Shown: in pieces, positions 20,584 to 49,960 of the stretch | Layout of the letters: each line of letters begins with the position of its first letter | How positions within the stretch are numbered: position 1 is the stretch's first letter | The notes under the pieces: model-generated | Told to the model about the DNA's origin: nothing | Seen by the model: only the letters and a program-made list of their open reading frames with translations | Database searches by the model: none | Assembly (NCBI GenBank): GCA_964398355.1 | Contig: CAYNMM010000082.1 | Coordinates: 711 to 64,710 of the forward strand | Source: an uncultured bacterium | GTDB taxonomy: Bacteria; Hydrothermota; Hydrothermia; B15-G9; WFZT01 | DNA: 64,000 nucleotides | Direction: 5' to 3' | Made by a program: the position numbers and the translations under genes

Positions 20584-20612
20584 TTGACAATTGGGTTTTA
20601 TGAATTTAAAAT
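20584..20612 (+). promoter_or_regulatory. Sigma-70-type promoter upstream of exbB (TTGACA-N17-TAAAAT)
   Basis: TTGACAAT at 20584-20591, a 17-nt spacer, then TAAAAT at 20607-20612, about 40 nt upstream of the exbB ATG. Confidence 0.55.
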
Positions 20613-20650: not shown

Positions 20651-21289
20651 ATGCAAGGACTTGTTGAATATTTCAATAAGGGCGGTTCAATGATGTGGTT
20701 ACTCCTCATCCTGGCTATACTTGGAACCGTAATCATCATAGAGAGAATCATCACATTGCTCATTAAAGCAAGCACTAACCCAAGAAAACTTGTGGAAAAA
20801 GTCAAGACATTAATAGAAGAAGATGGCATTGATGCCGCAGTTGAATATTTGCAGAAAAATAAAAAGCCTATTGCAAAAGTTTTGCTTGCAGGACTTGAGA
20901 AAGTTCATAGGGGGAGAACAGTTGTTGAGGAAGCTATGGCAGCAAAAGCTTCCGCAGAAATGGGTTTTCTTGACAGAGGCATGATCTATCTTTCAGCAAC
21001 AGCGACCCTTGCACCAATTATCGGATTCTTGGGAACTGTTACTGGAATGATCAAAGCATTCCAGGCTATAGCACTTGCTGGTGAGGTGGAGCCAACACTG
21101 GTGGCTTCGGGTATTTCTGAAGCATTGATTACAACGGCTTCAGGTCTTTTAATAGCAGCTCCAGTATCTCTTTTTTATGCAATTTTCCAGTCAAAAATTA
21201 ATGGATATTCCAGGGCAACTGAAGAAGCTGCCAACGAACTTATTGAGTATTTACTCGAAAAAGAATATATTAAAGAAGAAAAAGCCTGA
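20651..21289 (+). CDS. exbB: MotA/TolQ/ExbB proton-channel family protein
   Basis: 212 aa with three transmembrane helices and the MotA/TolQ/ExbB C-terminal core (ALITTASGLLIAAPVSLFY). Confidence 0.85.
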   Translation: MQGLVEYFNKGGSMMWLLLILAILGTVIIIERIITLLIKASTNPRKLVEKVKTLIEEDGIDAAVEYLQKNKKPIAKVLLAGLEKVHRGRTVVEEAMAAKASAEMGFLDRGMIYLSATATLAPIIGFLGTVTGMIKAFQAIALAGEVEPTLVASGISEALITTASGLLIAAPVSLFYAIFQSKINGYSRATEEAANELIEYLLEKEYIKEEKA

Positions 21290-21303
21290 GGGAGGTAATA
21301 AAA

Positions 21304-21723
21304 TTGGCAATCTTTAGAAAAAGCAGGCCTCCTGAAGAAGCTGAAATCCCGACTGCTTCCATGGCAGATATAGCATTCCTGCTGATCATTTTTTTCATGA
21401 CTACCACAATATTTGCAAGAGATAAAGGTCTTAAACTTGTCTTGCCTGAGAAAACAACTGAAATTGTTAAAATAAAATCAAAAAACATTATAAAAATCTC
21501 TATCAATGATCAGGGGCAAATATTTGTAGGAGATAAACAGGTCACACTTGATCAAATCCAGCCTATTCTGAAAGAGAGACTTGCGAAGAACCCCAAGCTG
21601 ATAATTCTGATTAAGACACACGAGAAGGCACCTTACGATCGGATGATTCAGGTCTTTGACCAGGTGAAACAGGTGCCAGAAGCCAAAAGAGTGGCTCTCG
21701 GTATGATAAAAGCCGGAGGTTAG
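21304..21723 (+). CDS. exbD: ExbD/TolR biopolymer transport protein
   Basis: Single N-terminal transmembrane helix (IPTASMADIAFLLIIFFMTTTIF) plus a periplasmic domain; 139 aa. Confidence 0.85.
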   Translation: MAIFRKSRPPEEAEIPTASMADIAFLLIIFFMTTTIFARDKGLKLVLPEKTTEIVKIKSKNIIKISINDQGQIFVGDKQVTLDQIQPILKERLAKNPKLIILIKTHEKAPYDRMIQVFDQVKQVPEAKRVALGMIKAGG

Positions 21724-21728
21724 AAGAG

Positions 21729-22139
21729 ATGAAAATCGAACGGAAAAGAGAAATGAAAGTTAATATTCCCACTGCTTCAATGTCAGATATTGCTTTCCTG
21801 CTCCTTATCTTCTTTATGGTAACGACTGTCTTTAGAAAGGAAATCGGCCTAAAAGTTATCCTGCCAACCGCTAAAACGACCGAGCGCTTGATTAAGCAAA
21901 GGGACCTTGCTCATATCTATATTGATAAGGATGGTAGAATATCTGTCGATGATAAGATTGTTACACCAGAACAGGTGAAAGTAGCGTTTAAGATTAAACT
22001 TGCTGAGAACCCCTCAACGATTGCTTATATAAAAGCTGATAAAAGGGTCGAGTATAAATATGTAAATGAGGTAATGGACGCCCTACGAGATGCTCAGGCT
22101 TTCAGAGTGGTATTTGCTACCCTTTATCCCAAGAAATAA
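21729..22139 (+). CDS. exbD: ExbD/TolR biopolymer transport protein (second copy)
   Basis: A paralogue of the preceding gene (IPTASMSDIAFLLLIFFMVTTVF); 136 aa. Confidence 0.85.
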   Translation: MKIERKREMKVNIPTASMSDIAFLLLIFFMVTTVFRKEIGLKVILPTAKTTERLIKQRDLAHIYIDKDGRISVDDKIVTPEQVKVAFKIKLAENPSTIAYIKADKRVEYKYVNEVMDALRDAQAFRVVFATLYPKK

Positions 22140-22144
22140 ATAGG

Positions 22145-22172
22145 TTGACAATTAAGTTTGACGGAATATATA
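22145..22172 (+). promoter_or_regulatory. Sigma-70-type promoter upstream of tonB (TTGACA-N16-TATATA)
   Basis: TTGACAAT at 22145-22152, then TATATA at 22167-22172, about 30 nt upstream of the tonB ATG. Confidence 0.5.
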
Positions 22173-22202
22173 TACATTAACGAATCCATGTGAGGTGATT
22201 CT

Positions 22203-22853
22203 ATGAGTGAGAAAGAAAAAAAGAACCTATCCCTTGAGGATGAGTATGGCACAAATGTTTTGCTATCCTTGGGGATAGCACTTGCCTTATTTATAGCAAT
22301 TTTCGCCGGGATTAAAAAAGTTGAAGTAAGCCCTTATAAGCCAAAATCTGAAGTTACAACGATAGTTGAGGAAATAAATACGCAGGTGGAAGAGTTGAAA
22401 GAACCTCCTCCACCACCTAAACCTAAATTGCCCGTTGAAATTAAGGAGTCAAATGAAGTTTCTGATGAAGAGGAGAATCAGCAGGAAGAGCAGGAAATAG
22501 ATTTTTCTCCAACAACTACATTTAATGAGCTTGAGGCACCACCTCCGCCAAAAGTGGAGAAGACGTATGAGTTTTTCGCTGTCGAAGTTAAGCCAAAGGT
22601 AGTGAAACAGGTTGAACCTCAGTATCCTGATCTTGCGAGGAAAGCCGGGATTGAAGGTAGAGTATTTGTTAAGGTACTTGTAAACGAACAGGGGAGAGTA
22701 GATTCAGTTGTAGTTCTTAAAGCCACAAATCCAATTTTTATTAAACCAGCAATTGCGGCAGCTAAACAATTTGTTTTCACTCCTGGCAGGCAGAGGGATA
22801 AACCCGTAAAGGTCTGGGTGGCAATACCTTTTATCTTTAAACTTGAACAGTGA
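22203..22853 (+). CDS. tonB: Energy transducer TonB
   Basis: N-terminal transmembrane anchor, a Pro-rich spacer (EPPPPPKPKLP...APPPPK) and a C-terminal TonB domain (VEPQYPDLARKAGIEGRVFVKVLVNEQGRV); 216 aa. Confidence 0.85.
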   Translation: MSEKEKKNLSLEDEYGTNVLLSLGIALALFIAIFAGIKKVEVSPYKPKSEVTTIVEEINTQVEELKEPPPPPKPKLPVEIKESNEVSDEEENQQEEQEIDFSPTTTFNELEAPPPPKVEKTYEFFAVEVKPKVVKQVEPQYPDLARKAGIEGRVFVKVLVNEQGRVDSVVVLKATNPIFIKPAIAAAKQFVFTPGRQRDKPVKVWVAIPFIFKLEQ

Positions 22854-22877
22854 TGAGAAAAATAGGAGGTATGTAAT

Positions 22878-25800
22878 ATGCCCGTTAAAAAGTTAGTGGG
22901 AGTAATCTTGGCGTTAGGTGTGTTGTTTCAGCTTAATGCTGGAACAACGGGAAAAATAATGGGGAGAGTAATTGACGCAAAAACGAAGGAGCCCCTCCCC
23001 GCTGCAAATGTAATGATTGAAGGTACTAATATGGGAGCAGCTACAGATGTAGATGGTTACTATGTAATTCTAAATGTTCCCCCTGGTACATATACTCTTA
23101 AAGTTACATATCTGGGCTACAAAGAAAAAATCATTGAAGGTGTCCAGGTTAATATTGATAGAACAACTGAAGTTAATATTGAAATGGAGCCTGCTGTCTT
23201 GAAAACCAAAGAGGTGGTTGTTAAAGCTAAGAGACCGATAATTAAGAAAGACGTTACAGCAAGTGTAAATATTATCAGTAGTAAAGACATTAGCAATATT
23301 CCAGCTGTTAATAACGTTCAGCAAGTTGTAGCTCAGCAGGCAGGTGTTATTCTGGGTAGAGGAGGAGATTTACATATTAGAGGTGGTAGACAGGATGAGG
23401 TCGTATATATCATCGATGGTGTTGTAGTTAGGGATCCTTATGGAGGAGCAACTTTTGGGGCAGTTCCATTGCTATCACTTGAAGAGACTGAAATTAGTAA
23501 AGGTGGATTTGATGTTGATCAGGGATCAGCAGCGTCCGGTGCCATTTCAATTGTTACAAAAGAGGGACGTGATAAATATGCGATTAATCTGGCTTTAACA
23601 ACACATGACTTTTCATTCCTCGGAGATAAGGGATATGCATTTTTTGATAGAAATATTGGAGATCCCTATCTGGATTTTCTAACAGGAAAGAATCTTGATC
23701 TCACTTCCCTGGAAAATAGACATAGAGATCAGATGAAAAGGCTGGAATTCTCGTTCAGTGGGCCTTTTATCCCTTCTTATAGAAAAGGTCCCAAATTTTT
23801 CGTCTCAGGAGATATAACTTACGATAAAGGAAGATTCCCTGTATCCAATGACCCAGATTGGTATAATAAGAGTTATACTTATCAGTGGAAGTTTACGTTC
23901 CCTTATAAATCCATAAAGCTTTTCTATAGCGGTTTTCGTAGAACGAGACATGATGGTGGAGGGTATAGCGCAACATGGAGGTTGGCTCTTGATCACCAGA
24001 CATATTATGATGAGGAGCTAATGCAACATGTATTTGGAATTAATTATTTGATCACGCAGAGATCCTATCTGGAAGTTAGAGTGGGATTGTTCAAGGATTA
24101 TTTCTTGTATAATGATAAAGAGGATGTTGATGGCGATGGTGTAGATGACTTTGCTGATCGTGATAAAGATGGATTCATAGAGATTGATAAAAGTTATTTT
24201 GTAGATTCTCTTGGTAATTTTAGACGGGACATTCTTGATTCTCTATATCCTGGCTGGGAAGATCACGGGTCTTATGTTGAAGTTCCATATTATTGGTGGG
24301 AATCCAGAGTTGAGCAATTGTATCCTTCATTTGGTACCGGTCCTTCATGGTGGTCCAATGATTCGACAGGTCGCTATGCCCCTTATAACCACTTTGGTTG
24401 GGGGACAAGAGTACGTGTAGATATTTATGTTTTAGCTCTTGATAATGGTGACACAATTGCAATGATTAACAATAACTATTACACATTTCCGCTCAATGAT
24501 TTACCAAATCTAACACCTTATGTCCCACCTGATCCGACATGGACTACTGATTCAATTTCTGCTCATGTAGTTGATACAGTCCTTTTTGTCGGAAACCAGT
24601 ATATGCCGTTCAATTACGTATGGGATAGAAGTCAGTGGTATGAGGGTGAGAGTAAGTCTTTCAGTGTGAATGTAAGGTATACAAATCAGATCACAAGGCA
24701 TCACGAAATCCTGGCTGGCGTTGAATACAAGAGGAATGATATCGTTAGAGTAGGTGCTGATTACGCCAGTGGGGGGAATGTTTATTTAACACTCACAAAT
24801 CCATGGTACACAATAAGGAATAGATTTCCTCAGGATACGGCATACAATTTCTTGAAATGGTATAGAGATCACAAGATTTATCCTTGGACTTTCGCTGCCT
24901 ACTTGAGAGATAAGATAGAGATCGAAGGGATGGTTGCAAAGGTGGGGTTTAGATTTGATTACTTTAATCCGGATGGCTGGGTTATAAGCGATACTGCTAA
25001 TCCTTTTATGAGTGATCCTGAATGGGGTAATTTAGGGATTAAAATGATGAGAGATCCTAAGAAGGCATCTCCTAAATGGTATATTAGTCCAAGGATCGGT
25101 GTGTCCCATCCAATATCTGATAGAGATCTCTTACATTTCACTTATGGCCATTATTTCCAGATCCCCACGTTTAATACTATGATTAGAGATTTTGCATTTT
25201 CCGGTGCTTTCCCAATAATTGGAAATTCTGATATCGATCCAGAGAAAATAGTCTCTTATGAATTCGGTGTTAAGCACGCTTTCACTGACAATTTCGCTAT
25301 TGATGTGACAGCATACTACAAAGATATCCGTGACTGGGTTAGAATAAAACAGTTTAGTTATGGAATATCAGCAAACTACTCAACTTATGTAAATGAAGAT
25401 TACGGTTCATCCAGAGGAATAGAATTACAGATTTTGAAGAGACCTGGTGGTCGTTATCTCCCTAACATAGGAGTAAATATTAATTACACCTTCCAGGTTG
25501 CTCGTGGAAGTTTCTCAAGTCCCAGAAACGCTTATGACTGGATGTGGAGAGGCTATCCTTTACCCACACATGAATCACCACTTGATTGGGATGAAAGACA
25601 CCATGTAACAGCTACTGTAATGTATCTGGTAGGTAATAATGGCATACTGGGTGGGAGACTGAGGAACTTTGGTGTAATACTTCATTATCTATATGGAAGT
25701 GGATTCCCGTATACACCACCAATCAGGACAGAAAGGGATGCAGTGGAAAAGATAAATTCTGAGAGACTGCCAGCATATTCACGCACTGATTTAAGAATAT

Positions 25801-26006
25801 ACAAAGATTTTGGATTCAAGCTTCTTAAGGGGAAGATATATATTGATATAACAAATCTATTTAATAAAAAAGAACTCAGGACGTTCAATGATGTTAATAC
25901 ATATTATGTGCTTCATGAACCTGAAGGTGAGGTGAAAAATCCAACAGTGTGGTATCCGAGAAGGCAGACGACCCTTGGAATTCAATTTAGTATTAAAGGG
26001 TTTTAA
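22878..26006 (+). CDS. TonB-dependent outer-membrane receptor with an N-terminal carboxypeptidase-regulatory-like domain (SusC/RagA-like architecture)
   Basis: Signal peptide, then a CarbopepD_reg-like domain (GKIMGRVIDAKTKEPLPAANVMIEGTNMGAATDVDGYYVILNVPPGTYTL). A plug domain follows, then a long beta-barrel ending in an aromatic residue (…SIKGF); 1042 aa. Confidence 0.85.
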   Translation: MPVKKLVGVILALGVLFQLNAGTTGKIMGRVIDAKTKEPLPAANVMIEGTNMGAATDVDGYYVILNVPPGTYTLKVTYLGYKEKIIEGVQVNIDRTTEVNIEMEPAVLKTKEVVVKAKRPIIKKDVTASVNIISSKDISNIPAVNNVQQVVAQQAGVILGRGGDLHIRGGRQDEVVYIIDGVVVRDPYGGATFGAVPLLSLEETEISKGGFDVDQGSAASGAISIVTKEGRDKYAINLALTTHDFSFLGDKGYAFFDRNIGDPYLDFLTGKNLDLTSLENRHRDQMKRLEFSFSGPFIPSYRKGPKFFVSGDITYDKGRFPVSNDPDWYNKSYTYQWKFTFPYKSIKLFYSGFRRTRHDGGGYSATWRLALDHQTYYDEELMQHVFGINYLITQRSYLEVRVGLFKDYFLYNDKEDVDGDGVDDFADRDKDGFIEIDKSYFVDSLGNFRRDILDSLYPGWEDHGSYVEVPYYWWESRVEQLYPSFGTGPSWWSNDSTGRYAPYNHFGWGTRVRVDIYVLALDNGDTIAMINNNYYTFPLNDLPNLTPYVPPDPTWTTDSISAHVVDTVLFVGNQYMPFNYVWDRSQWYEGESKSFSVNVRYTNQITRHHEILAGVEYKRNDIVRVGADYASGGNVYLTLTNPWYTIRNRFPQDTAYNFLKWYRDHKIYPWTFAAYLRDKIEIEGMVAKVGFRFDYFNPDGWVISDTANPFMSDPEWGNLGIKMMRDPKKASPKWYISPRIGVSHPISDRDLLHFTYGHYFQIPTFNTMIRDFAFSGAFPIIGNSDIDPEKIVSYEFGVKHAFTDNFAIDVTAYYKDIRDWVRIKQFSYGISANYSTYVNEDYGSSRGIELQILKRPGGRYLPNIGVNINYTFQVARGSFSSPRNAYDWMWRGYPLPTHESPLDWDERHHVTATVMYLVGNNGILGGRLRNFGVILHYLYGSGFPYTPPIRTERDAVEKINSERLPAYSRTDLRIYKDFGFKLLKGKIYIDITNLFNKKELRTFNDVNTYYVLHEPEGEVKNPTVWYPRRQTTLGIQFSIKGF

Positions 26007-26020
26007 TGGAGGTTTTTGAC

Positions 26021-28075
26021 ATGAGGAAATTATTCATTATAGGGATATTTTTGGTGGGGATTTCTTTTGCGAGAGACAAAGGAATATCTCAGTATCAAAT
26101 TAAAGGCACGAGACCTTCAGATAAGATAATCAATCAAACGGTTGGACAGGTGTGGAATTACTTATCAAATTATGGGTCTCTTGGGGGTCAGGCGGGAGCA
26201 GATTATTATGGATTAAGCTGGCCTGGTGGTGCAGCTGTAAATAATTACTATCTATGGAACAGTTATTTTACAGTTGGGGCAAAGGTAGAAGGTACTCCTT
26301 ACATTTCCTACTATAATTATTATTTCTCGAACTGGAGCCCCTCGGATAATCCACCTATCTACGCCGGTCCAGGTAAATCTCCCTTTGATGTAGTTATGGC
26401 CTTTGATGACTTCAAAGACAGTCCGAGGCAGAGTCCGGGTAATCATCTTGGTGTTAAAGTGATTATTAGAAGTATGCAATGGCCGCAACCCCCCTATAAT
26501 AATTTTGTGGCTTATGAATTCTATATAACCTATGATGCTTCACAGTGTGATATTCCAGGCCATACGGATGTTCTACATGATGTCTTTATCGGGATGTGGT
26601 ATGACTGTGATGTTTCGGGAGCCGATCCAACAGAGCCACATATTGATGACCTTGTGTGTTTTGATGGGTGGACAAATGGAGAATGGGCAGATCTTGCGAA
26701 TTTCCCATCTCCTTCTGACCATCTGACAATCCTCCCGGATTCTGTAATCGACCAGCCAGATGGAGTTCCTGATCAATATATAATCTGGGGAGATGAACCT
26801 GGAGAGCTTGTTCTTGATTCTTCTCTTGCGGTTCCTTATGTAAGAAATGATACAACGTATATGGTTTACATTTTCCCACGCGGAGCATCATATATTTATG
26901 ACGGGGATAACCCTGCAGATCCTGGTGATGATACAGGAGAACACGGTATGTCTGCGGGTTATGTAGGTGGCATGTGGATTTATACTCCTCCATCTCCATC
27001 AGACTCTGTAATAGGTGATGCAAGGTTTGTTAGACCTTGGGCACATCAATGGTGGAACTGGAGTAGTGACCCTGCGACTCCAACAGATATTTATAATTAT
27101 TTAAGAGGGCATCATTCTGCAACAAAGTTTTACAGATATGCCCCTCATCCGTTTGATCTTGGAGCAGGCCCTTTCGATTACAGATTCCTGAACAGTGTGG
27201 GTCCATTCAACATAAGGAGTGGCGATACGCTCAAATTCGTATGGGTTGCTGGTGTAGGTCAGGGTTTAAGCGGAGGTTATGATTCATACTGGGGTAGAGG
27301 GTGGCTTCCTGGTTTGAGACAGGTTCTTGATGATGCTCTAAAAGCTTATTATGCAGGCTCAACTCATTCTGATCCGGCACATCCCTCAGCACCAGATGAA
27401 GATCAGCACTGGAGAATTCCGGTTCCTCCACCATCACCGCTCCTTGTATACTCTGTAACTTCTGATGGTATAAGACTGGTATGGGATGATCTCCCTGAGA
27501 GGACACCTGATCCATTGAAGGGTTATCCGGATATGGTTGGATATATTGTATATAGAGCTGTATATCAGCCGATAAACTGGACTGTCCTTGACACCATTAA
27601 AAGAAATCCAGACGGCACATTCACTCACACATATCTTGATACAACGGCTATTCCTGGATTTCAGTACTATTATGTGGTCACAGCTTATGATGAAGATAGT
27701 CTCGAATCTTCCAAGAATAATTATATGAAGGACGAGAATGGGAATCCGATGTATGTTACCATGAAATCCAAGATTGGTCGAAGCGTCGATGATGTGACGG
27801 TTGTACCTAATCCATATAAGGGCTCTGCCCCGTGGACAGCGACTGAGATAGCAGATAAGGTTGAATTTATTAATCTTCCTTCGACGTGTAGAATCACTAT
27901 TTATACACTTTCAGGATACAAAGTTAAAACTCTTGAGAATAAGGAAGGTAAAGGTTCTCTTGCCTGGAACTTATTGACAGATGCTGATATTAAAGTTCAG
28001 AGTGGAATATATATTTACAAGGTTGAGACCCCGGATGGCAAATATAAATTAGGGAAATTGGTAATTTTGAAATAA
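26021..28075 (+). CDS. Hypothetical secreted protein with an FN3-like region and a C-terminal T9SS sorting domain
   Basis: The start is placed at MRKLFIIGIFLVGISFA (signal peptide), 7 nt downstream of GGAGG. The protein is rich in W/Y/P/D. The C-terminal ~80 aa match the Por secretion tail pattern (VVPNPYKG...ITIYTLSGYKV...SGIYIYKVE...KLVILK). I recognise no catalytic motif. Confidence 0.7.
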   Translation: MRKLFIIGIFLVGISFARDKGISQYQIKGTRPSDKIINQTVGQVWNYLSNYGSLGGQAGADYYGLSWPGGAAVNNYYLWNSYFTVGAKVEGTPYISYYNYYFSNWSPSDNPPIYAGPGKSPFDVVMAFDDFKDSPRQSPGNHLGVKVIIRSMQWPQPPYNNFVAYEFYITYDASQCDIPGHTDVLHDVFIGMWYDCDVSGADPTEPHIDDLVCFDGWTNGEWADLANFPSPSDHLTILPDSVIDQPDGVPDQYIIWGDEPGELVLDSSLAVPYVRNDTTYMVYIFPRGASYIYDGDNPADPGDDTGEHGMSAGYVGGMWIYTPPSPSDSVIGDARFVRPWAHQWWNWSSDPATPTDIYNYLRGHHSATKFYRYAPHPFDLGAGPFDYRFLNSVGPFNIRSGDTLKFVWVAGVGQGLSGGYDSYWGRGWLPGLRQVLDDALKAYYAGSTHSDPAHPSAPDEDQHWRIPVPPPSPLLVYSVTSDGIRLVWDDLPERTPDPLKGYPDMVGYIVYRAVYQPINWTVLDTIKRNPDGTFTHTYLDTTAIPGFQYYYVVTAYDEDSLESSKNNYMKDENGNPMYVTMKSKIGRSVDDVTVVPNPYKGSAPWTATEIADKVEFINLPSTCRITIYTLSGYKVKTLENKEGKGSLAWNLLTDADIKVQSGIYIYKVETPDGKYKLGKLVILK

Positions 28076-28090
28076 ACAGGAGATAGTGTC

Positions 28091-29074
28091 ATGAAGAGGG
28101 TTTTAATAATTTTATCGATAGTCTTTCTGATTACATTGCCCAATGCTCTTACTGCCCAATCCAAAGTTGGTACCGCTGGAGCTAATTTTTTAGCGGTGCC
28201 TATTAATCCTGTTGCAATGGGTATGGGGGGAGCTTATGTTGCAGTTGCAGATGGTCCTTTAAGCAGTTTCTGGAATATAGCTGGAGTTGCGAATGTTAAA
28301 GATAATCTTGCCACTGGATTTGGTTATGTCAATTATGTGGCAGGAATTAACATTGGTGGTTTTGGTGTTGTTAAGAAGTTAGGATTAAGAGGTAACATTG
28401 CTTTCTTTGTCGGTGGATTAAACTCAGGTAGTATGGATAAATACAGTATTTCTCAAGATAGGGGAATTATAAATGAAGGTACGTTTACTTATTCAAGTGA
28501 ACAAATTGGTATAGGATTTGCCAGATACTTTACCGATAAGTTTGCCTCAGGTGTTGCGGTAAAATTAATCCATGAGAGTGTTAGTGGAGAAACAAGCTCA
28601 CTTGGATTTGCTGTTGATGTTGGAACCTATTTCTGGACTGGATTCAAAAGTCTACGAATCGCAATGTCTATGCAAAATATTGGTCCGGATATGAAATTTA
28701 GCGGAACCTATAAACAATACATTTACTCCGGTAATGAGGTAGTTACTGAAGATAGGGAATATAATTCGTATCCGATTCCTCTTAATTTCAGACTTGGAGC
28801 TGCTATGGAGATTATAGATCAACCAGATAAACGTTTAACAGTTTCAGTTGAGAGTAATCATCCCAGTGATTTTGATCAGACCTTTGCTGTAGGAGCAGAG
28901 TTTGCATTCAGGAATATGCTCTATTTGAGAGGAGGATATAATTTTGGATTAGACCTTGGTGGTCTTGGTCTTGGTTTTGGAATTAAATTGAAGTCAATTT
29001 CTTTTGATTACGCGTATTCTGACATGGGTGAGTGGCCTGATGTCCATAGGATCTCAATAAACTTTGTCAAATAA
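28091..29074 (+). CDS. PorV/PorQ-like outer-membrane beta-barrel protein (probable T9SS-associated)
   Basis: Signal peptide, then a conserved N-terminal segment GTAGANFLAVPINPVAMGMGGAYVAVADGPLSSFWNIAG of the kind seen in PorV/PorQ-family proteins. The rest alternates G/aromatic beta-strands; 327 aa. Confidence 0.5.
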   Translation: MKRVLIILSIVFLITLPNALTAQSKVGTAGANFLAVPINPVAMGMGGAYVAVADGPLSSFWNIAGVANVKDNLATGFGYVNYVAGINIGGFGVVKKLGLRGNIAFFVGGLNSGSMDKYSISQDRGIINEGTFTYSSEQIGIGFARYFTDKFASGVAVKLIHESVSGETSSLGFAVDVGTYFWTGFKSLRIAMSMQNIGPDMKFSGTYKQYIYSGNEVVTEDREYNSYPIPLNFRLGAAMEIIDQPDKRLTVSVESNHPSDFDQTFAVGAEFAFRNMLYLRGGYNFGLDLGGLGLGFGIKLKSISFDYAYSDMGEWPDVHRISINFVK

Positions 29075-29080
29075 AATGGA

Positions 29081-30220
29081 GTGGGAATTATGAAAAGGTT
29101 AACAGGTATAGGAATTATTTTAATTGCTTTAGCGTTTGTAGGGTGTGGCGTGAAAAATAATCCTCCTACAGGACCTTCTGTAATTGACAGAGGGGCTGAC
29201 TATTTTAATGAACAGGGTTGGCTGAAGTATAGTCAGGGGGATTATTATGCTGCAAAGGCAAATTTTGACACTGTGTTAAGCATGATTTCTCCTGAGAATA
29301 TAGATGCTTATCTCGGTATTTCAATGGCCATGAAGCAGATTGGTGAATACAGTAGAGCTCATGGTTATGTAACTATGGCTATTACAGTTGCCAACCAGGA
29401 GAGACAGGTGATAGAAAAATTGAGGAAATTCCTTGTGCAAACTGTGAGTCCTATTAACGATACACTTGCATGGATGACTTTTGATACGACAAATATCGCC
29501 TTTGTTAATAAAATGGAAATTTCAGTAACCCTTGCAAATACGAGATACCATAATCTGGATTCAGCTGCGGTTTATGATACATTATACGGTGGGCCGGCTG
29601 GCGCGAAGATTTACTTTAAGGTAATGAGTTACAGCTTTGATGGTGATTCAGTGCTTATTTCATGGGACAATGAGAAGAACTTTACTTCAAACACTACGTA
29701 TTTTTACGAACGCACAGATTTACCACCAGACAGTATGTCCGTGGACACAACTTTGTATTTACCTGATAGCATAGTAGTTGATACAACTTATTATTATCCT
29801 ATAGATACCCTTCAGCTCGTTCGTTGTTTACCCCTCCCCGGTGATACGGTTGTTGCTAATGTGGCGTATGTTATTGGGGGTAATAATGACGTAGAGAATG
29901 CTGCTCATATAGTAGATGGTGCCGTCTACTTCGCTGCCGGTGATTATCTGAATGCGATAAAATGGATGAGAGCCAGTATGTTGATGAGTGATAATTTTGC
30001 ATATAATGCTCCGTATGCGGATTCACTCCCAGGAAAACTTATAAACACAAGAAACGCCAAGATTCTATTAGCACAGTCTTTTTACAATCTCGGTATGTAT
30101 AGGGATGCAGCCTATGTGGTCAATAATCTTTATGGTCGAATCGTTGTAGATCCTGAAAACCCTGATATTCATCTTTTATTTAACAGCATTGTGGAATTGA
30201 GAAACCAGGGAGGTCTATAA
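29081..30220 (+). CDS. TPR-like lipoprotein of unknown function
   Basis: Lipobox ALAFVGCG. The N-terminus has TPR-like helices (QGWLKYSQGDYYAAKANFDTVL...AYLGISMAMKQIGEY); 379 aa. Confidence 0.55.
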   Translation: MGIMKRLTGIGIILIALAFVGCGVKNNPPTGPSVIDRGADYFNEQGWLKYSQGDYYAAKANFDTVLSMISPENIDAYLGISMAMKQIGEYSRAHGYVTMAITVANQERQVIEKLRKFLVQTVSPINDTLAWMTFDTTNIAFVNKMEISVTLANTRYHNLDSAAVYDTLYGGPAGAKIYFKVMSYSFDGDSVLISWDNEKNFTSNTTYFYERTDLPPDSMSVDTTLYLPDSIVVDTTYYYPIDTLQLVRCLPLPGDTVVANVAYVIGGNNDVENAAHIVDGAVYFAAGDYLNAIKWMRASMLMSDNFAYNAPYADSLPGKLINTRNAKILLAQSFYNLGMYRDAAYVVNNLYGRIVVDPENPDIHLLFNSIVELRNQGGL

Positions 30221-30221
30221 A

Positions 30222-33200
30222 ATGAGAAGGGTTCTATATTTCTTCATCAGTATCTCCTTTGTTTTTATTGGGAGAATGAACGCCCAGCAATTTTCGGTAG
30301 GAGATACAGCCACTTTTAAATACTATGACGCAGGATTCTTTAGCGGTTTTTATACTGCAAAATATTTGTGTAGAGCTGTCACAGATAATGCATACATATT
30401 TAGCGAAGAGGTTCCATATCAAATAACAAAAGTCTACGTGGGTAATGGCCAGGTCATAGTTTTCGATCCCGCTAAGAAGTACTATCGCAAATTAAATGAT
30501 AACGACGTATTTTCTATTTTCGGTTATTCTGAGGATACGACATCATTGATCTATAACCTGAATCACACCGGGAAAGCTGCAATAAAACTTCTTAGAACGG
30601 GTGGTATTCAATTTTATACAGTGACGACGCAAGGATTATACCTTTATAACGTTTCTAATTGGTCCCTCAGATTGCCAAGACGTGATCTTGTTGATGTTGC
30701 CGTTTCTCCTAAAGTTCCTACATCTATAATAGGGTATTTCCCGTATTTCCTTGCAAAATATTCAATACTTACCACACTGAGAACGCCTTTAGGCAGAGTA
30801 ATCAAGTTGCCTCATGACCTCTTTATCGATGATGGATTTGAACCCGATTATTCCGAAGATACTTTACTTACTGATTGGACAACATCAGGAAACGTTAGCG
30901 TTGTCAGGTCTATTTTAATTTCCATACCCCACTATTTGATGCACCTCTCTGGGAATGCCAGTGCTTCAAAGTCATTTTCCTTACCAGCTACTATGTTTAA
31001 ATTTGAAATAACCCCAGTAATCACCCGCAACACTCCTGATGGTGTTGTTAGTTTCGAGGATCAATCCGGCACTTCAGCATTTTCTCTTACGTTCTTAGGT
31101 GATTCACTATTTTTGAATGGCAATAATTTGGGTGAATTCCAGCCATATAGTGTGCAGAAGATTGAGGGTGTCGTTAATATAAATGATGGATTATTGCAGA
31201 TTTATTTGAATGACTCCCTCGTCTACGATGATTCGAACTATACATTTGATGTCTCTCAGGTGTCCAAATTACAGATTTCATTAAATAGTGGTGAGCTGTT
31301 TTTAGATGACATCGCTGCTCAACCTATCGTATATACTATTGTTGGACATCATTCTAACAAGAACGCTTTTTATCTTGGTGCTGCGGATGGGCTTTATTTA
31401 TATAACTCTGGCACCTGGTCGAAAATTTATGACGGAAATGTGAGAATTGTGAGGCCAGTTAGTGACAACACTGTCTACATATTGTCTGATAATCTTATAT
31501 TGAAGACTGAGGATGGTGGAGCGAGCTGGGATACGTTGCCATCAACTACACTTGACTCAGTATATGATTTTGCGGTAAATCCTGATAATACTGACTTGTT
31601 GGTTGCTGTGGGAGTACCAGGAATTGTTAAATTTGCAGATGGTAGCTGGCAAAATATATCCGACTCTTTACTCAATTGGTCACCTCCAGAATTTGTTGAT
31701 ACAATTTACTCCGTTGGCTATTTAGATGATTCTACTATTGTTATTGGTACAGGACAGGGTGTTTTTATGAGTGAGGGAACCATTGAAAATCTTGTTGAGA
31801 AAAATAAAGGTATCTTAAAGAGTTTTATCACGAATGATGGTGTACAGTTGCTTGCTCAATATGTGGATAGTGCGTATACGACTATGAACACTTTCTTTGA
31901 TGGACTTGCAAGGGATGTGGATAATGATCCCAGAGTTTACGTGCTTGCAGGTGACTTGTCTGCAAAGCTTACCTCCGGGGAGACCAAAATTATTCCCATT
32001 CTCGGTGTCATGAATCCTGAACTGAATTATGTAGAGGATGCCAATCATCCACATGGCGATGGTCATGAAATAATAGAGATTGATGTGTATGATGATAGTT
32101 TAAATCAGTACGTTTCTTCAGCTTATGAGACCTGGAAATATGCGACTTATAGAGCAATGGCCAAACTGTTTTTCTGGACGCATGATACTAAGGAGGAGAA
32201 CTGGTTAATTGAAGGAATCGGGGGACTTGGTGAATACCTTGCAAAATACAATCCAGGTGATCCAGATACCGCAGAATATGAATTGAGCCCCCTTTATAGC
32301 TTGAAAAAAATCTTGGTAACTCCTTATAAGGTTGATCAATACGTTGCCAGTTTAAATAGACCATATCTCTTCCTTCTCCATTTATGGGCGAAATATGGCA
32401 TTCAGACACTACAATCTATTTATTCAGACGCAACTATTCCATCATCAGTTGTGGGATTAGCAAGAATAGCAAGAATTACTGGAGTCGATCAAAACGATCT
32501 TTATAAAGAATGGATTCTGGATGTATTTAAACATGAGAATATGGATCTCACACCTAATTTGAATGTTAATCTTATCGAAAGGTTGTTCCCTCCTTATTAT
32601 TCCACGATACAGTCATTATCTGATTGGTCATTCGGTGGATTTCAAATAGTGTTGACACAAAATGATACTCTCAATTATCTGAGATTTAACGGTGTCAATA
32701 TTAATGATTCAAGTGAATTTGATGTTTATTATGGGATCAGTGGTGGTACTCTCCACCATGTAACAGATTGGGGAGCTAATGGTGATAGAGTAATAACAGG
32801 ACTGACGAATACACAAGACACAACGGTATATAACTTCATTGTATTTTTTGCTGATAGTCAATTGTCTGACAATACTGCACTTTCTTATGCTGTTAAGAAG
32901 GATACAATTCCACCAACGGTGGATGTTGGTTATTTCCAGAATAGCCTTGCTGATAGGAATATTAATGTTTATTTATTTACAAATGAGCGGTTATTCGATG
33001 AGGTTATTGACACCATACCATCTCTTTATCTTATTTCAGGTCTTGATACAACGACAGCAGATCTCTCAATCTTCGACTCTTATAACGATACAATTATTTA
33101 TTCTTCAAACTTTACTCTCTCAAGTACCGGTAAGATTTATCTCAAAGCATCGCTACAAGATTTTGCTGGAAATGCAGTAGAAATAAGTGATTCTGTCCTT

Positions 33201-33830
33201 GCCTGGTATTTGCAGAGCGGTAGCAAACTCACTTTCACTGGATTTGATGGTGAAATATTACTCGAAATACCGGAAAACGCGATCTCAGTAGGGGGTTATG
33301 CTATTTACTCTATCTCAAATGGTGGTTTCTATAAAGTCTCCAATCCGGTTTATGTCTTCCCAAATGTACAGCTGAAATCGCCTGCTCGTGTGGAGTTAAA
33401 TTTGCCCAATGATGGAAAGAAAGATTATCACGTTTATGTCTGGTACAAAGGAACCTGGCATGACGCTGGTGGAATGCTGACGCCATCTGGAGACAGAATA
33501 GTTGCTTATATTAATACTCTTGGCCCATTAACATTGATGCAGACAAATGGTATTATACCACGGAGGTTTGCGTTTAAGCTTCTGGGCTCTCCAGTGATTC
33601 TCTCTAAAAAAGTATCCTTTGAGGTCTCTGTCCCTCATCCTACAAAGTTGAGCGTAAAAGTATACAACTTAAGTGGTAGAGAAGTCGCAAAATTGTTCGA
33701 TGGTAACATTAGTTCTGGTAAGTACAACTTTAGCTGGAGGGTTGAAAGTTTGCGTAATGGAGTATATTTCATTGTCGTAAAAGATTTGAGGAGTGGCGTA
33801 AGATTTTCTAAAAAAGTTGTAAAGTTTTGA
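30222..33830 (+). CDS. Large hypothetical secreted protein (1202 aa) with a BNR/Asp-box-like repeat and a C-terminal T9SS sorting domain
   Basis: Signal peptide MRRVLYFFISISFVFIGRMNAQQ. Asp-box-like TEDGGASWDT. C-terminal Por tail (KLSVKVYNLSGREVAKLFDG...NGVYFIVVKD...KVVKF). Confidence 0.7.
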   Translation: MRRVLYFFISISFVFIGRMNAQQFSVGDTATFKYYDAGFFSGFYTAKYLCRAVTDNAYIFSEEVPYQITKVYVGNGQVIVFDPAKKYYRKLNDNDVFSIFGYSEDTTSLIYNLNHTGKAAIKLLRTGGIQFYTVTTQGLYLYNVSNWSLRLPRRDLVDVAVSPKVPTSIIGYFPYFLAKYSILTTLRTPLGRVIKLPHDLFIDDGFEPDYSEDTLLTDWTTSGNVSVVRSILISIPHYLMHLSGNASASKSFSLPATMFKFEITPVITRNTPDGVVSFEDQSGTSAFSLTFLGDSLFLNGNNLGEFQPYSVQKIEGVVNINDGLLQIYLNDSLVYDDSNYTFDVSQVSKLQISLNSGELFLDDIAAQPIVYTIVGHHSNKNAFYLGAADGLYLYNSGTWSKIYDGNVRIVRPVSDNTVYILSDNLILKTEDGGASWDTLPSTTLDSVYDFAVNPDNTDLLVAVGVPGIVKFADGSWQNISDSLLNWSPPEFVDTIYSVGYLDDSTIVIGTGQGVFMSEGTIENLVEKNKGILKSFITNDGVQLLAQYVDSAYTTMNTFFDGLARDVDNDPRVYVLAGDLSAKLTSGETKIIPILGVMNPELNYVEDANHPHGDGHEIIEIDVYDDSLNQYVSSAYETWKYATYRAMAKLFFWTHDTKEENWLIEGIGGLGEYLAKYNPGDPDTAEYELSPLYSLKKILVTPYKVDQYVASLNRPYLFLLHLWAKYGIQTLQSIYSDATIPSSVVGLARIARITGVDQNDLYKEWILDVFKHENMDLTPNLNVNLIERLFPPYYSTIQSLSDWSFGGFQIVLTQNDTLNYLRFNGVNINDSSEFDVYYGISGGTLHHVTDWGANGDRVITGLTNTQDTTVYNFIVFFADSQLSDNTALSYAVKKDTIPPTVDVGYFQNSLADRNINVYLFTNERLFDEVIDTIPSLYLISGLDTTTADLSIFDSYNDTIIYSSNFTLSSTGKIYLKASLQDFAGNAVEISDSVLAWYLQSGSKLTFTGFDGEILLEIPENAISVGGYAIYSISNGGFYKVSNPVYVFPNVQLKSPARVELNLPNDGKKDYHVYVWYKGTWHDAGGMLTPSGDRIVAYINTLGPLTLMQTNGIIPRRFAFKLLGSPVILSKKVSFEVSVPHPTKLSVKVYNLSGREVAKLFDGNISSGKYNFSWRVESLRNGVYFIVVKDLRSGVRFSKKVVKF

Positions 33831-33861: not shown

Positions 33862-36087
33862 ATGAAGAAGTATAAAGTGTTAGGTCTAATAGCTGCTCTG
33901 ATGTTCGTTGTTGGAACATCGAGAGCTGAGCTCGCTATCCTGACACCGGTGAATTCCAAAACGGGCCACAGTGATATTATCCCACTGAAAGATGCCAGAA
34001 AGGTGTCAGCTTTTATGCACAGTATACAGGCTAAGGGAGTGATAGACACCATTTCCTATTTCGATGTGAACAGTTTCTATATATATTCAGGTATAGATGT
34101 TGGTGATACAATGGTTGAGTGGTTTAAATCGGTAGCGGCATGTTCACTCCAGGCTGCTTACATGTATGTATTGAACAAGTATACTGCAAATAGTCAGGCA
34201 TACTTCTTCGTCTCTGGAGTTCCTGATTCACTTGCGCCAGTGTTTGATTCAACGTGGTATTATGGGATTGGACATCACTGGTATGACTATCACTTTGGTG
34301 CATCTTACTCTCTTCCTCCTGGTCCCTCTCCTATTGCGTATGATTCTGTATATTATAGCACAACTGTAAATGTCACTGGAGATACTTTGTTTTTACTCGG
34401 TAATTCTCTTCCGAACGCAGTTGATGTAGGAACGAAACCATTCCTTGTGGGATTCACACCTCTTACAGATGGGAGTGGTAGTTCTGATGAGCCCTGGGCA
34501 ATTATCAGTGCTGGTGCAGCTGGAAATAATTACGGATATCATGCCCTTGTATATCAACAGGATTTTGGTTCATCTTTCCCTGGAGCATCCCCTGGATGGT
34601 ATGCTAACTGGCATACATATTGGGCATACGCCATAGTTAATATTTATGAAAACCCGGCTCCATTCATCAATTCCGTTACGAAGTTACCCTGGACTTACGA
34701 CCTCGATGGTCCATTTACCATTCAGGCAGATTTGAATGATTTTGGTGTCCCTTCTGATTCATCAGGAGTTGCTTATGCAGAACTGGAAGTTTGGGTCGGC
34801 TCAGATGCCACTGATACTCTCCATATCCCAATGACGCTCGTAAGTGGAGATTCTACAGCAGGAATATGGCAAGCAGTTTATACACCTTCGACTGCTTTGA
34901 ACGTTGGTGACACTGTATTCTACACAGTAATGGCAAGAGATGTTCAGGGAGCTGAATCATACTATAGTCATATCTATTTCTTCTCCACGCTTCAGCAGAC
35001 CACAAACCAGATTCTTTATGTACTTGATGCAGGTGCAGCTACAAGGGATAGGGATGTAGATTTTGCCTCTGTATTCCAGGCATTGGGTTATCAGGTTGAC
35101 GTGTACGATGCTTATCATTGGGGTTCACCAGATGCGACTGTTCTCCTTGGTCAAGGTGGATATTCCCAGCCTTATCAGATGGTTTTCTGGACAGGTTGGG
35201 GAAGTGGAGCTTTCGCTGCTGACACAGCTTTAATTGCCCAGTATCTCGACAATGGTGGAAAACTTGTAATCTCTGATGAAGATTTTGTCGTTGGTGGATT
35301 TGGACTTGGAGACTATGGTCAGTGGACTGACATACCAGAGGGAAGTTTCCTTTACAACTATCTGAAGATCGCTTCCGTATTTGATGATTATGTTGGTACA
35401 TCCCCTGATGATGGAGGATACACTGCAAACTCCGATACAATTATCAGCCTCACTGGAGAGGCAACGAATCCAGTTGGACAGGCTTTCGCTAACGATTCAA
35501 TAACACTCTATCCTTACGCTCATCAGGTCGACAGTACAACCTACGGCAGTTACAACTACGTCGGTGCTGTGATTAATAATGGTGAAGCAAGTGATGCATT
35601 CTATATGCCTGATGGAACCCCAACAGCTATTACTTACAATGGTACATACAGAGCTGCAGTTCTTTATTGGCCATTCACTTATCTTGTTGACTCTGTGACT
35701 GTTGATACATCAGGTGCTGTAACAGGATTTGTTTATGATCAAACAAGGACACAGACACTTATGTCAGCACTCATAAACTTCCTCACTACTGGAGTTGCAG
35801 AATCCAATCCTACTCCGGTGAATGGGCTGAAACTTGCTGTAAGGAACAACCTTGCCCTTAACGGAAAAGTTTCCATAAGCTTTGCTATTCCTACGGCTGG
35901 TAAAGTGGATGTTTCCGTATTCGATGCGTCTGGAAGGAAAGTGACAACACTGTTTAGTGGAAATCTCAATAAAGCCGGACTGTACACTACGCACTGGAAT
36001 GCAGATGGTGTAAGACCAGGTGTGTACTTCGTGAGATTGCAGACGAATGCAGGTTCTCTCACAAAGAAAGCGATGATCCTTAAGTAA
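33862..36087 (+). CDS. Hypothetical secreted protein (741 aa) with a C-terminal T9SS sorting domain
   Basis: Signal peptide MKKYKVLGLIAALMFVVGTSRA. The central region has a GATase1/ThuA-like flavour (GGKLVISDEDFVVGG). C-terminal Por tail (KVDVSVFDASGRKVTTLFSG...PGVYFVRLQTNAGSLTKKAMILK). Confidence 0.7.
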   Translation: MKKYKVLGLIAALMFVVGTSRAELAILTPVNSKTGHSDIIPLKDARKVSAFMHSIQAKGVIDTISYFDVNSFYIYSGIDVGDTMVEWFKSVAACSLQAAYMYVLNKYTANSQAYFFVSGVPDSLAPVFDSTWYYGIGHHWYDYHFGASYSLPPGPSPIAYDSVYYSTTVNVTGDTLFLLGNSLPNAVDVGTKPFLVGFTPLTDGSGSSDEPWAIISAGAAGNNYGYHALVYQQDFGSSFPGASPGWYANWHTYWAYAIVNIYENPAPFINSVTKLPWTYDLDGPFTIQADLNDFGVPSDSSGVAYAELEVWVGSDATDTLHIPMTLVSGDSTAGIWQAVYTPSTALNVGDTVFYTVMARDVQGAESYYSHIYFFSTLQQTTNQILYVLDAGAATRDRDVDFASVFQALGYQVDVYDAYHWGSPDATVLLGQGGYSQPYQMVFWTGWGSGAFAADTALIAQYLDNGGKLVISDEDFVVGGFGLGDYGQWTDIPEGSFLYNYLKIASVFDDYVGTSPDDGGYTANSDTIISLTGEATNPVGQAFANDSITLYPYAHQVDSTTYGSYNYVGAVINNGEASDAFYMPDGTPTAITYNGTYRAAVLYWPFTYLVDSVTVDTSGAVTGFVYDQTRTQTLMSALINFLTTGVAESNPTPVNGLKLAVRNNLALNGKVSISFAIPTAGKVDVSVFDASGRKVTTLFSGNLNKAGLYTTHWNADGVRPGVYFVRLQTNAGSLTKKAMILK

Positions 36088-48775: not shown

Positions 48776-49960
48776 TTACTCAAGAATGACGAGTGTATCA
48801 GATTTTTTCTTAACAGTTCTGAACCATTTTTTTGTATCCAGTTCACCGATCGGACTCATAGGTGAGGGTTTAGGTGGTATTTCCCCTCTATTTAATATTT
48901 TACGGGAATATAGCTCTTCGAGGATTCTCTTTTTCACATTATCTGAGCACAGGGAGCAGTGATAGATTTCCGCGAGGGAGACGAGGATCATTTCGTTTAT
49001 ATGTTCCGTACCCTTCTCCTCGTGTATATGTGGGTTTAAAGTCTCAATTTGAAATATCTCAATACCCTGCTCATAGACGTCCTTATATTTCTCGGGTTGT
49101 GGTGGATTTGTCATTTCGTCGAGCAGGAATACAAGCTGATGGGTTTCAACAGAATAACCGGATGAGAATGACATTATATCAGCGAGTTGCATTGACATGG
49201 CATGTTCACCTGCGTTACCAGTGACAAAAATGTCAGTTTCAAATCCTGTTCTATCTGCGATCATCAGATTAAGATATTTGTTGGTGATCTCACTCACCCT
49301 TCCTCTTCTTCTGAAGTAAAGTCCTCTTTGCATAACTTTGGGTTTATGTCTCCATTTTAGCCTGACCATTGTGTATTCGCTTTCGCTCATCAAAATACCT
49401 GCGGCGTAGTCTTTAACATATTCATTAACTGAGCCAGGTATGTAGTTATCTGCGTCGATGAAACCTACATACTTTGCGCCGATCGCCTTTGCCAGCATTA
49501 CTCCGAGGAGCATCCCTTCCCCTTTCCCATAACGGATCAGTCCATCCTCTTCATCTATGATGTCGAAGTATTGTTGCTCTTTAAATGCTTCAGATGCTCC
49601 GAGATCTTTTTGGTGAATAATGAATACTCTGGAGTGTGTAAGAGAATAGTAGTGCTTGATTAATTCGATTTCCATTTTGAAATGGTTGGGTATATCTTTC
49701 TGACTTGCAGAAACTACAATGATGGGACATTTGTGGGGAATTGCCTTCAATACCCCATCGAGAAGGTGTAATTTTTCATTTTTCAAAGGTATTACAATGG
49801 CAAGGTCCTTAAAAACGTTGTAAATTTCTTCACGCGGAATGTTGCTTATAAGTGAACTCTCAACCTTCTCTGTCTCCGTGTCAAATTTGATAACCTTTTG
49901 AGATTCGTGAACTATTAAAGGGCCAAAAATTTCCTTATAAACTGAAGATTCAAGGATCAT
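48776..49960 (-). CDS. mpgS: Mannosyl-3-phosphoglycerate synthase (GT55 family)
   Basis: 394 aa. GT-A fold with a DAD motif ([25 protein letters not shown]). By my recollection it is colinear with archaeal/thermophile MpgS (KEIFG...KFDTETE...[27 protein letters not shown]). It is paired with a HAD MpgP-like gene. Confidence 0.65.

Follow-up and report, generated by a model that had tools for sequence, protein, structure and literature searches.

In Porphyromonas gingivalis, PorU and PorZ are tethered to the cell surface through PorV and PorQ (PMC5562754), PorP binds cargo with a C-terminal domain (CTD) of type B (PMC12704123), and PorF (PG0534), a predicted plug-domain receptor-like protein of unknown function, is needed late in secretion through the T9SS (short for type IX secretion system; PMC12704123). 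The SusC-SusD, RagA-RagB and BtuB-BtuG systems of the Bacteroidota are encoded by a receptor gene that is followed at once by the gene of its partner. Studies of TonB-dependent uptake and of type IX secretion usually treat the two apart, and they deal almost only with Bacteroidota. Here we describe a locus of an uncultured bacterium of the Hydrothermota in which a gene between those of a TonB-dependent receptor and a PorV/PorQ-family outer-membrane barrel encodes a T9SS-sorted protein, so that receptor and partner gene stand in the same order as in the Bacteroidota pairs. The locus lies on a stretch of 64,000 nucleotides (assembly GCA_964398355.1, contig CAYNMM010000082.1, positions 711 to 64,710 of the forward strand), which is called the window in the following, and the central gene (26006..28075, + strand) and its product are called the target. 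Judged from its sequence, the target family is unannotated and absent from Pfam and NCBIfam. New here is this protein family without a model, which belongs to a conserved unit of three genes by which, outside the Bacteroidota, TonB-dependent transport is coupled to surface display via the T9SS. No published description of the cluster was found in the literature on WOR-3, the T9SS, TonB-dependent receptors and the Fibrobacterota-Chlorobiota-Bacteroidota (FCB) phyla, the coverage of which was incomplete.

The linkage was assessed by tblastn with the cluster proteins on fetched loci, 76 of which contain a full-length target homologue. The receptor gene is found 5' of the target gene in 68 of the 69 loci that could be assessed on this side, a PorV/PorQ-family gene is found 3' of it in 71 of 72, and the order receptor, target, barrel is kept in 65 of the 66 loci assessable on both sides, down to 32% identity and over about ten phylum labels. 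The sole exception (L028) is a paralogue located amid TPR and cyclase genes. The median gaps are about 18 nt between receptor and target and about 15 nt between target and barrel, and in LCP-89 and three other lineages the arrangement is confirmed by gene calls made independently. In the window the gaps are 14 nt and 15 nt, and the target gene is thus directly downstream of the receptor gene, as an earlier note on this DNA had described. That note had missed the PorV/PorQ-family gene, which is as tightly linked to the target as the receptor gene. Because the order of the three genes is maintained across so many lineages, we tentatively infer that the target is a non-catalytic ligand-capture partner of the adjacent receptor, exported by the T9SS and docked with its CTD on the PorQ-like barrel.

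The three genes are part of a conserved cluster of six to ten genes. The TonB motor is encoded directly 5' in WOR-3, Hydrothermota, and some other loci (ExbB is syntenic 5' of the receptor in WOR-3 and Hydrothermota loci), and the usual genes on the 3' side are those for a large CTD protein, a TPR protein, and another CTD protein. In the window the order, all on the + strand, is ExbB, ExbD, ExbD, TonB, receptor, target, PorV/PorQ barrel, TPR lipoprotein, and the 1202-aa and 741-aa CTD proteins:

20584..20612, + strand: promoter-like site TTGACA-17-TAAAAT (11/12), about 40 nt 5' of exbB, candidate operon start
20651..21289, + strand: ExbB/MotA-family proton channel (PF01618, E 1.6e-28)
21304-21723 and 21729-22139, + strand: two tandem ExbD genes (PF02472, E 4.8e-26 and 1.3e-27)
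22203..22853, + strand: TonB with a Pro/Glu/Lys-rich linker and a TonB_C domain (PF03544, E 1.4e-19)
22878..26006, + strand: TonB-dependent receptor, 1042 aa, with CarboxypepD_reg domain, plug, and 22-strand-type barrel (PF13715, PF07715, PF00593)
26008-26012, + strand: Shine-Dalgarno sequence GGAGG, serving the target ATG at 26021, 8 nt away
26021..26071, + strand: Sec (SPI-type) signal peptide MRKLFIIGIFLVGISFA of the target, residues 6-22, cut before RD (read from the sequence)
26111..27415, + strand: N-domain of the target, residues 36-470 (435 aa), a large beta supersandwich with Asp/Gly/Pro-rich loops (AlphaFold2 model)
27416..27805, + strand: FN3 domain and conserved extended segment of the target, residues ~471-600 (Foldseek, weak sequence matches)
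27854..28075, + strand: type-A T9SS CTD of the target, residues 617-689, and stop codon (TIGR04183, profile, model)
28091..29074, + strand: PorV/PorQ-family (FadL-like) outer-membrane barrel, 327 aa (NF033709, 179.5 bits, cut-off 90)
29081..30220, + strand: TPR protein with a lipobox-like AFVGC, probable lipoprotein (weak TPR matches)
30222..33830, + strand: 1202-aa T9SS cargo with Ycf48/BNR-like propeller, M30-like domain, Ig-like domains, and CTD (profile A3; TIGR04183, 27.1 bits)
33862..36087, + strand: 741-aa T9SS cargo (TIGR04183, 37 bits; no PDB sequence match)

The equally tight linkage of the barrel and the conservation of the whole cluster open a rival reading, which we consider unlikely. 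The cluster could be an attachment or anchoring module of the T9SS in non-Bacteroidota phyla of the FCB group, in which the receptor would take the part of PorF, the barrel that of PorQ, and the target that of PorZ. The target would then be a surface protein that retains its CTD and presents a glycan or lipopolysaccharide (LPS) anchor to the sortase. PorF, as a plug-domain receptor-like protein required late in secretion (PMC12704123), would provide the precedent, and the cluster is kept as a unit over many phyla without catabolic genes, as would be expected from machinery.

The target is a real gene product and is predicted to be secreted. Full-length homologues were found at 32-85% identity, which rules out a chance open reading frame (ORF). 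The maximal ORF (26006..28075) encodes 689 aa and begins at the end of the receptor gene, whose stop codon TAA at 26004-26006 is located just 5'. However, Met6, encoded by the ATG at 26021, is nearly invariant among 57 homologues and is suitably spaced from the GGAGG. Therefore, translation most likely starts at 26021, as the earlier note had proposed, and the 689 aa that it also gave hold for the maximal ORF but not for the likely product of 684 aa. The gene 3' of the target has an AGGAG of its own. The reported richness in Trp, Tyr, Pro and Asp is real: together these residues account for 28.7% of the target against 14.2 +/- 3.4% in the 38 other ORFs of the window, the highest value of all, and the contents of Trp and Tyr are each the top values as well.

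The secretion signals of the target hold up at both ends. The signal peptide recognised earlier is a plain Sec signal (MRKLFIIGIFLVGISFA, followed by RD), readable from the sequence, and there is no lipobox, as no Cys is present within or following it. An AlphaFold2 model of the full-length protein, built on the 57 homologues (pLDDT 87.8, pTM 0.82), shows residues 7-20 of this region as a helix of low confidence, and residues 603-616 as a disordered linker, also of low confidence, in front of a CTD modelled as a beta-sandwich (residues 617-689). TIGR04183 matches residues 621-687 with 26.3 bits, a borderline pass of the cut-off of 23, while PF18962 stays with 16.2 bits under its cut-off of 27. 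The tail of T9SS type is thus real, although calling it a canonical Por tail was somewhat generous. The profile of the target family also matches the CTDs of PorZ (5m11, E 2e-4) and PorU (6za2, E 1.4e-3). The CTD is conserved to the same degree as the rest of the protein (mean pairwise identity 46.7% versus 43.6%). This conservation had been considered as proof of CTD retention and was downgraded, because the family of the 741-aa neighbour also keeps its CTD best.

The barrel scores higher against the PorQ model (97.5 bits) than against the PorV model (63.6 bits), both values being under the equivalog cut-offs, and weakly matches the PorV of F. johnsoniae (6h3i_F). The barrel fits the PorQ model best and the best PDB match of the target CTD is the CTD of PorZ, and both points favour the proposed docking of this CTD on the barrel. 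The same two observations, together with the similarity to the CTD of PorU, also favour the attachment-module reading, in which a PorZ-like protein would sit on a PorQ-like barrel. The target itself is neither PorZ nor PorU. Both models match the tail only (PorZ, NF052228, 15.8 bits against a cut-off of 260; PorU, NF033707, 20.3 bits against 420), there is no propeller in the structural models, and Peptidase_C25 does not match. The missing propeller and C25 domain speak against the attachment-module reading.

The transporter looks functional from its sequence, with a plug, a barrel, a TonB-box-like motif (KEVVVKA) after the N-terminal domain of the receptor, and ExbB, ExbD, ExbD and TonB encoded 5' of it. 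The two ExbD proteins are about 41% identical to each other. A complete TonB motor and a plugged receptor are the standard signature of uptake, and this is a further point against a role of the cluster in T9SS attachment. The receptor could not be assigned to the SusC/RagA family, as TIGR04056 covers only residues 26-193 with 91.8 bits against a cut-off of 368. It was also rejected as an Oar-like, secretion-linked receptor, since there is no PF25183 match at E<0.01; for one homologous receptor elsewhere a 'faint' PF25183 match is on record. Around residues 400-430 the receptor contains an Asp-rich insertion, DKEDVDGDGVDDFADRDKDGFIEID, that resembles thrombospondin-type-3 or calcium-binding loops. 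It is located in an expected extracellular loop and echoes the Asp-rich loops of the target. Promoter-like sites are not present in the region above shuffled expectation, so that the site at 20584..20612, the best match, is a candidate only, and Rfam revealed no riboswitch or other RNA element in the window.

The FN3-like segment described in the earlier note is supported by Foldseek, which with the full-length model found only FN3 tandems (contactin, titin, integrin) and PorZ, the latter via its tail, and by weak sequence matches to titin FN3 and to the 'Fn3-like protein' 3mpc. Many proteins of 600-900 aa have only the FN3-linker-CTD module in common with the target (200+ bits). Their N-terminal parts differ and are mostly unannotated, one being an M28 peptidase, and stalk plus tail may therefore represent a reusable display module.

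Because the FN3 tandems swamped the Foldseek matches of the full-length model, the N-domain was modelled and searched alone. Its model is all-beta (pLDDT 94.9, pTM 0.94), and in the PDB it best matches the N-terminal supersandwich domains of dextran dextrinase, GH116 beta-glucosidase, the GH94 phosphorylases of cellobiose, cellodextrin and laminaribiose, and cyclic glucan synthase, as well as galactose mutarotases. The E values range from 1.7e-5 to 1e-3 and the probabilities from 0.85 to 1.0, with a TMq of only 0.27-0.41, an rmsd of 8-16 A and an identity of 7-12%. In the viral library BFVD only the N-domain of a GH65 protein and a phage FN3 protein were matched. The modelled N-domain bears a weak likeness to the N-terminal, non-catalytic domains of GH116, GH94, GH15, and GH65 enzymes. 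By sequence it is not recognised at all: Pfam gave no match to the target at E<0.01 and only the tail at E up to 10, NCBIfam only the tail at E up to 1, and a PDB sequence search, with the single sequence as well as with a profile of 57 sequences, only the FN3 and CTD parts. The absence of a recognisable catalytic family, noted before from the sequence, was thus borne out by Pfam, NCBIfam, PDB profile and Foldseek searches, none of which returned a characterised enzyme family. The same note had suggested a partner of the receptor resembling SusE/F or surface glycan-binding proteins (SGBPs). As far as gene order is concerned, the partnership stands; the kind of partner does not, as no SusD, SusE/F or SGBP structure was among the top 50 Foldseek matches listed for either model. 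An identity with SusD, SusE/F or SGBP was rejected because the N-domain is an all-beta supersandwich, no SusD Pfam family matches, and there is no lipobox.

Two types of motifs are conserved in the N-domain. Aromatic residues are concentrated in WPGG..NYYLW, HQWWNW, and FDYRF, and Asp residues in the Gly/Pro/Asn-rich loops YDxDV, PHIDDLV, PDGxPD, and YDGDNP. Invariant are D128, D200, D202, D252, D256, H347, W349, D355, D391, Y392, and R393. Invariant Asp residues in such Gly/Pro-rich loops resemble structural Ca2+ sites. The aromatic motifs HQWWNW and NYYLW together with Asp loops as expected for Ca2+ sites support the ligand-capture reading. The N-domain could also be an extracellular enzyme of a new kind, such as a peptidase or a polysaccharide lyase or hydrolase dependent on Ca2+, which would process a polymer at the cell surface and whose products would enter through the receptor. 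In favour of an enzyme are the invariant Asp, His, Tyr and Arg residues, the galactose-mutarotase fold, which has catalytic members in some families, a relative with a dockerin of the kind found in cellulosomal enzymes, and the real peptidase domains (M28) in some proteins with the same FN3-CTD module. Nevertheless, we regard an enzyme as quite improbable. Neither profiles nor fold comparison matched an enzyme family, the domains matched by structure are those without catalytic function in their own enzymes, and the invariant Asp residues belong to DxDxxG-, PDGxPD-, and DGDNP-type loops that are typical of structural Ca2+ sites. In addition, His347 is replaced by Thr or Met in two of the twelve fusion paralogues described below, which argues against a catalytic role. 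Because there is no enzyme match, the fold is of an accessory type, and the (alpha/alpha)6 domain is absent, binding is favoured over catalysis, and the target is probably a non-enzymatic surface protein.

Downstream of the TPR gene (TPR proteins are also encoded 3' in clusters L002 and L017), the cluster in the window continues with two large T9SS cargo proteins. The propeller and M30-like module of the 1202-aa protein was used to build profile A3, which matches lugdulysin (7bb9/7bb8, M30; E 1e-20) and Ycf48/BNR-type propellers, and its M30-like domain is of the lugdulysin/hyicolysin type. The HExxH motif is absent from this protein, which has 'TYRAMAKLF' instead, and from every neighbour homologue examined, and the protein is therefore a pseudo-protease. 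Relatives of the 741-aa protein are found 3' in many clusters. In a reading as T9SS machinery, the 1202-aa propeller/pseudo-protease would be another subunit of the attachment complex, and such a role is favoured by the fact that all three large neighbours are T9SS cargo. The LCP-89 cluster ends (L001, 21679-22271) with a Propeptide_C25/Peptidase_C25 protein of 1276 aa that has a T9SS tail and is PorU-like in its domain content; the equivalent position in L084 is taken by an S8 peptidase with a CTD. A C25 peptidase with a CTD behind the cluster would fit the attachment module, but a PorU-like neighbour was seen in one lineage only. Apart from the PorV/PorQ-family gene, the 64-kb window contains no T9SS core genes; the rest of it is housekeeping. 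In another locus (L023, 1000-5036, from a metagenome-assembled genome (MAG) labelled Cloacimonadota), a second pair is encoded directly 5' of the receptor-target pair, consisting of a 995-aa protein without Pfam match and, following it, a barrel of FadL/UPF0164/PorV-like type. A large surface protein paired with a PorV-like barrel may be a building block that recurs.

The N-domain is also found in other contexts. Short paralogues consist of the N-domain and a CTD without FN3 and are encoded distant from any receptor gene. In proteins of 1400-1600 aa (P0128, P0130, P0132 and similar ones), the N-domain is located near the C-terminus and followed by a CTD, and the first ~800 residues are homologous to the 1202-aa neighbour in the window (BLASTP, E 1e-11). 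These fusions thereby join a module of propeller, pseudo-M30 domain and two FN3 domains to the N-domain and CTD of the target. The MAG JAPDKE01, which has a canonical triad (L032), also encodes one of them (L086, 4741-9024) in an unrelated neighbourhood, and the fusions are therefore paralogues. Even so, they show that the N-domain and the propeller/pseudo-M30 module work together in one polypeptide. In a further relative (P0156) a type-I dockerin takes the place of the T9SS tail, so that cellulosome-like systems, presumably from outside the FCB group, use the N-domain as well. As far as these architectures tell, the N-domain is a mobile extracellular module that is combined with a CTD alone, placed behind a pseudo-M30 module, or joined to a dockerin, as is typical of binding modules. 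So many paralogues in unrelated contexts and architectures would be unusual for a dedicated part of a secretion machine, which weakens the attachment-module reading further.

As ligand-capture partner, the target would cross the inner membrane by the Sec pathway, as its signal peptide suggests, and its type-A CTD would carry it over the outer membrane through the T9SS. There, the PorQ-like barrel encoded 15 nt 3' would hold the CTD, by analogy with PorQ-PorZ and PorV-PorU in Porphyromonas, and the FN3 domain would act as a stalk. The aromatic-rich and probably Ca2+-stabilised supersandwich would be positioned over or beside the 22-strand receptor and bind a polymeric nutrient, most likely a glycan but possibly a glycopeptide or peptide, which the receptor would import powered by the ExbB-ExbD2-TonB motor encoded just 5'. 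Functionally, this would be equivalent to susC-susD or btuB-btuG, with a beta protein anchored via the T9SS taking the role of the lipoprotein. The 1202-aa pseudo-protease and the 741-aa cargo would probably be further surface subunits.

Several observations weigh against this proposal. The fold similarity of the N-domain is weak (TMq <=0.41, rmsd 8-16 A), so that carbohydrate binding is only a lead. There is one conserved cluster per lineage, and it comes without linked catabolic enzymes, which looks more like machinery than like a locus for the uptake of one particular substrate. Machinery would also be compatible with the sugar-handling type of the fold, given that PorZ is thought to bind anionic lipopolysaccharide (A-LPS; PMC5562754). 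The conservation of the CTD is not peculiar to the target, since in the 741-aa family the CTD is the best-conserved part, and the similarity to the CTDs of PorZ and PorU may be an artefact of the few solved structures that include a CTD. Finally, the class of the ligand is uncertain. The fold and the aromatic motifs suggest a glycan, while the pseudo-protease neighbour suggests a peptide or glycopeptide; as a protease-like protein, this neighbour points to peptides over glycans.

A word-indexed protein search identified 207 relatives, all of which are unnamed or called 'T9SS type A sorting domain-containing protein', and a scan of one genome per species yielded 360 stretches encoding relatives of the target. 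Taxon labels were read from the MAG labels of the best 80 of these 360 stretches. They comprise WOR-3, Hydrothermota/Hydrothermales, Caldipriscus, Stahlbacteria, TA06, and Cloacimonadota, and further Calditrichota, KSB1, LCP-89, Zixibacteria, and Neomarinimicrobiota (Marinimicrobia). A few labels (Thermotogota, Actinomycetota, Woesearchaeota) are probably wrong. For WOR-3 an isolate exists, strain sy37 (PMC12285271). The closest relative is 83-85% identical, and the source of the window is therefore an organism of WOR-3 or Hydrothermota type. An exhaustive profile search found 1095 representative clusters at E<1e-30, a number that is partly driven by the FN3-CTD module alone.

The genes of the cluster do not share one history. 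This was seen when the region 20651-29074 of the window was compared with the corresponding regions of three related loci (L010, L008, L004). Compared to L010, ExbD2 and TonB are 98-99% identical in protein, and the receptor, the target and the barrel only 54%, 58% and 43%, respectively. Compared to L004, TonB is less similar (86%), yet the receptor (84%) and the target (83%) are far more similar than to L010. A recent transfer of ExbBD-TonB could explain the 98-99% identity to L010 but was rejected, because in DNA the identity is only 82-83%. The similarity therefore reflects an old divergence under strong purifying selection, and the histories are incongruent. By these comparisons purifying selection on the TonB motor is unusually strong, and the genes from the receptor onward seem either to have been exchanged together, as one cassette, or to evolve under diversifying pressure. 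Such a divergence of the cassette, out of step with exbBD-tonB in the closest relatives, would also be expected of exposed surface antigens. The target could accordingly be a subunit of a surface coat or an adhesin delivered by the T9SS, linked to the receptor by co-expression only. This would be in line with the FN3 and Ig-like architecture, the extreme content of aromatic residues and Pro, and the several large CTD proteins encoded together. However, the target has neither repeats nor self-assembly motifs, and it is hard to imagine how gaps of 15-18 nt to the receptor and barrel genes could have been kept across phyla without a functional link. A coat or adhesin subunit is therefore very improbable.

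Two genes elsewhere in the window deserve mention. A mannosyl-3-phosphoglycerate synthase is encoded at 48776-49960 on the - strand (PF09488, E 8e-146). Enzymes of this type make a compatible solute typical of (hyper)thermophiles, in keeping with an origin of the window from a hydrothermal WOR-3 or Hydrothermota organism. The 779-aa ORF at 11292-13631, also on the - strand, has a weak, sub-threshold match similar to glucosamine-6-phosphate isomerase (24.1 bits) and is otherwise unannotated.

The unit of receptor, CTD protein and PorQ-like barrel links TonB-dependent uptake and the T9SS, both of them major systems of the cell envelope in the FCB superphylum, and is almost invariant across mostly uncultured phyla. 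If the target caps or feeds the receptor, the unit would show how bacteria without SusD-type lipoproteins build nutrient-capture complexes at their surface, and barrels of the PorV/PorQ family would serve generally as anchors of retained CTDs. If the cluster were part of the T9SS machinery instead, a function could be proposed for PorF-type receptors. In both cases, a large family without Pfam or NCBIfam model is defined together with a concrete complex that can be tested. More generally, it is possible, though rather doubtful, that candidate phyla related to the FCB group (WOR-3, Calditrichota, KSB1, Zixibacteria, Marinimicrobia, Cloacimonadota, and others) share an ancient, hitherto undescribed machine of the outer membrane, in which a TonB-powered 22-strand receptor is in permanent association with surface subunits delivered by the T9SS, each docked with its retained CTD on a PorQ-like barrel of its own. 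This machine would be either the equivalent, built with the T9SS, of the SusCD 'utilisome' of Bacteroidota or the missing context of the enigmatic PorF, as a TonB-dependent step of cargo attachment.

Compared to the SusC-SusD type of pairs, the likeness goes beyond the order of the genes in that the receptors have a similar N-terminal CarboxypepD_reg-like domain, a plug and a large barrel, the partners have a signal peptide and no catalytic domain, and more surface proteins are encoded 3'. However, the target is all-beta, with a supersandwich and FN3 where SusD has a helical fold, and it has a T9SS CTD in place of a lipobox and is thus no lipoprotein. Moreover, a PorV/PorQ-family barrel is the nearly obligate third gene, the receptor fails the SusC/RagA model, so that only the gene order is Sus-like, and the target cluster occurs outside the cultured Bacteroidota. 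The best structural matches of the N-domain are the supersandwich domains of GH116/GH94/GH65/GH15-type enzymes. The N-domain differs from these by its long extra Asp-rich loops, and the catalytic (alpha/alpha)6 domain of these enzymes has no counterpart in the target, which has no TIM domain either and in which only FN3 and CTD follow. In the SprB-SprF type of system the gene of a T9SS cargo protein lies beside the gene of the barrel that anchors it, and target and barrel follow the same logic. The CTD of the target is, however, of type A (TIGR04183) and not of type B/CHU_C, PF13585 having no match, and the barrel belongs to the PorV/PorQ and not to the PorP/SprF family. In PorQ-PorZ and PorV-PorU of P. 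gingivalis, a T9SS protein is held at the surface by a FadL-like barrel of the PorV/PorQ family (PMC5562754), the family to which the neighbour of the target belongs. From both pairs the target differs by having neither the propellers of PorZ nor the C25 domain of PorU, and in that its gene and the barrel gene are adjacent and tied to a TonB-dependent receptor.

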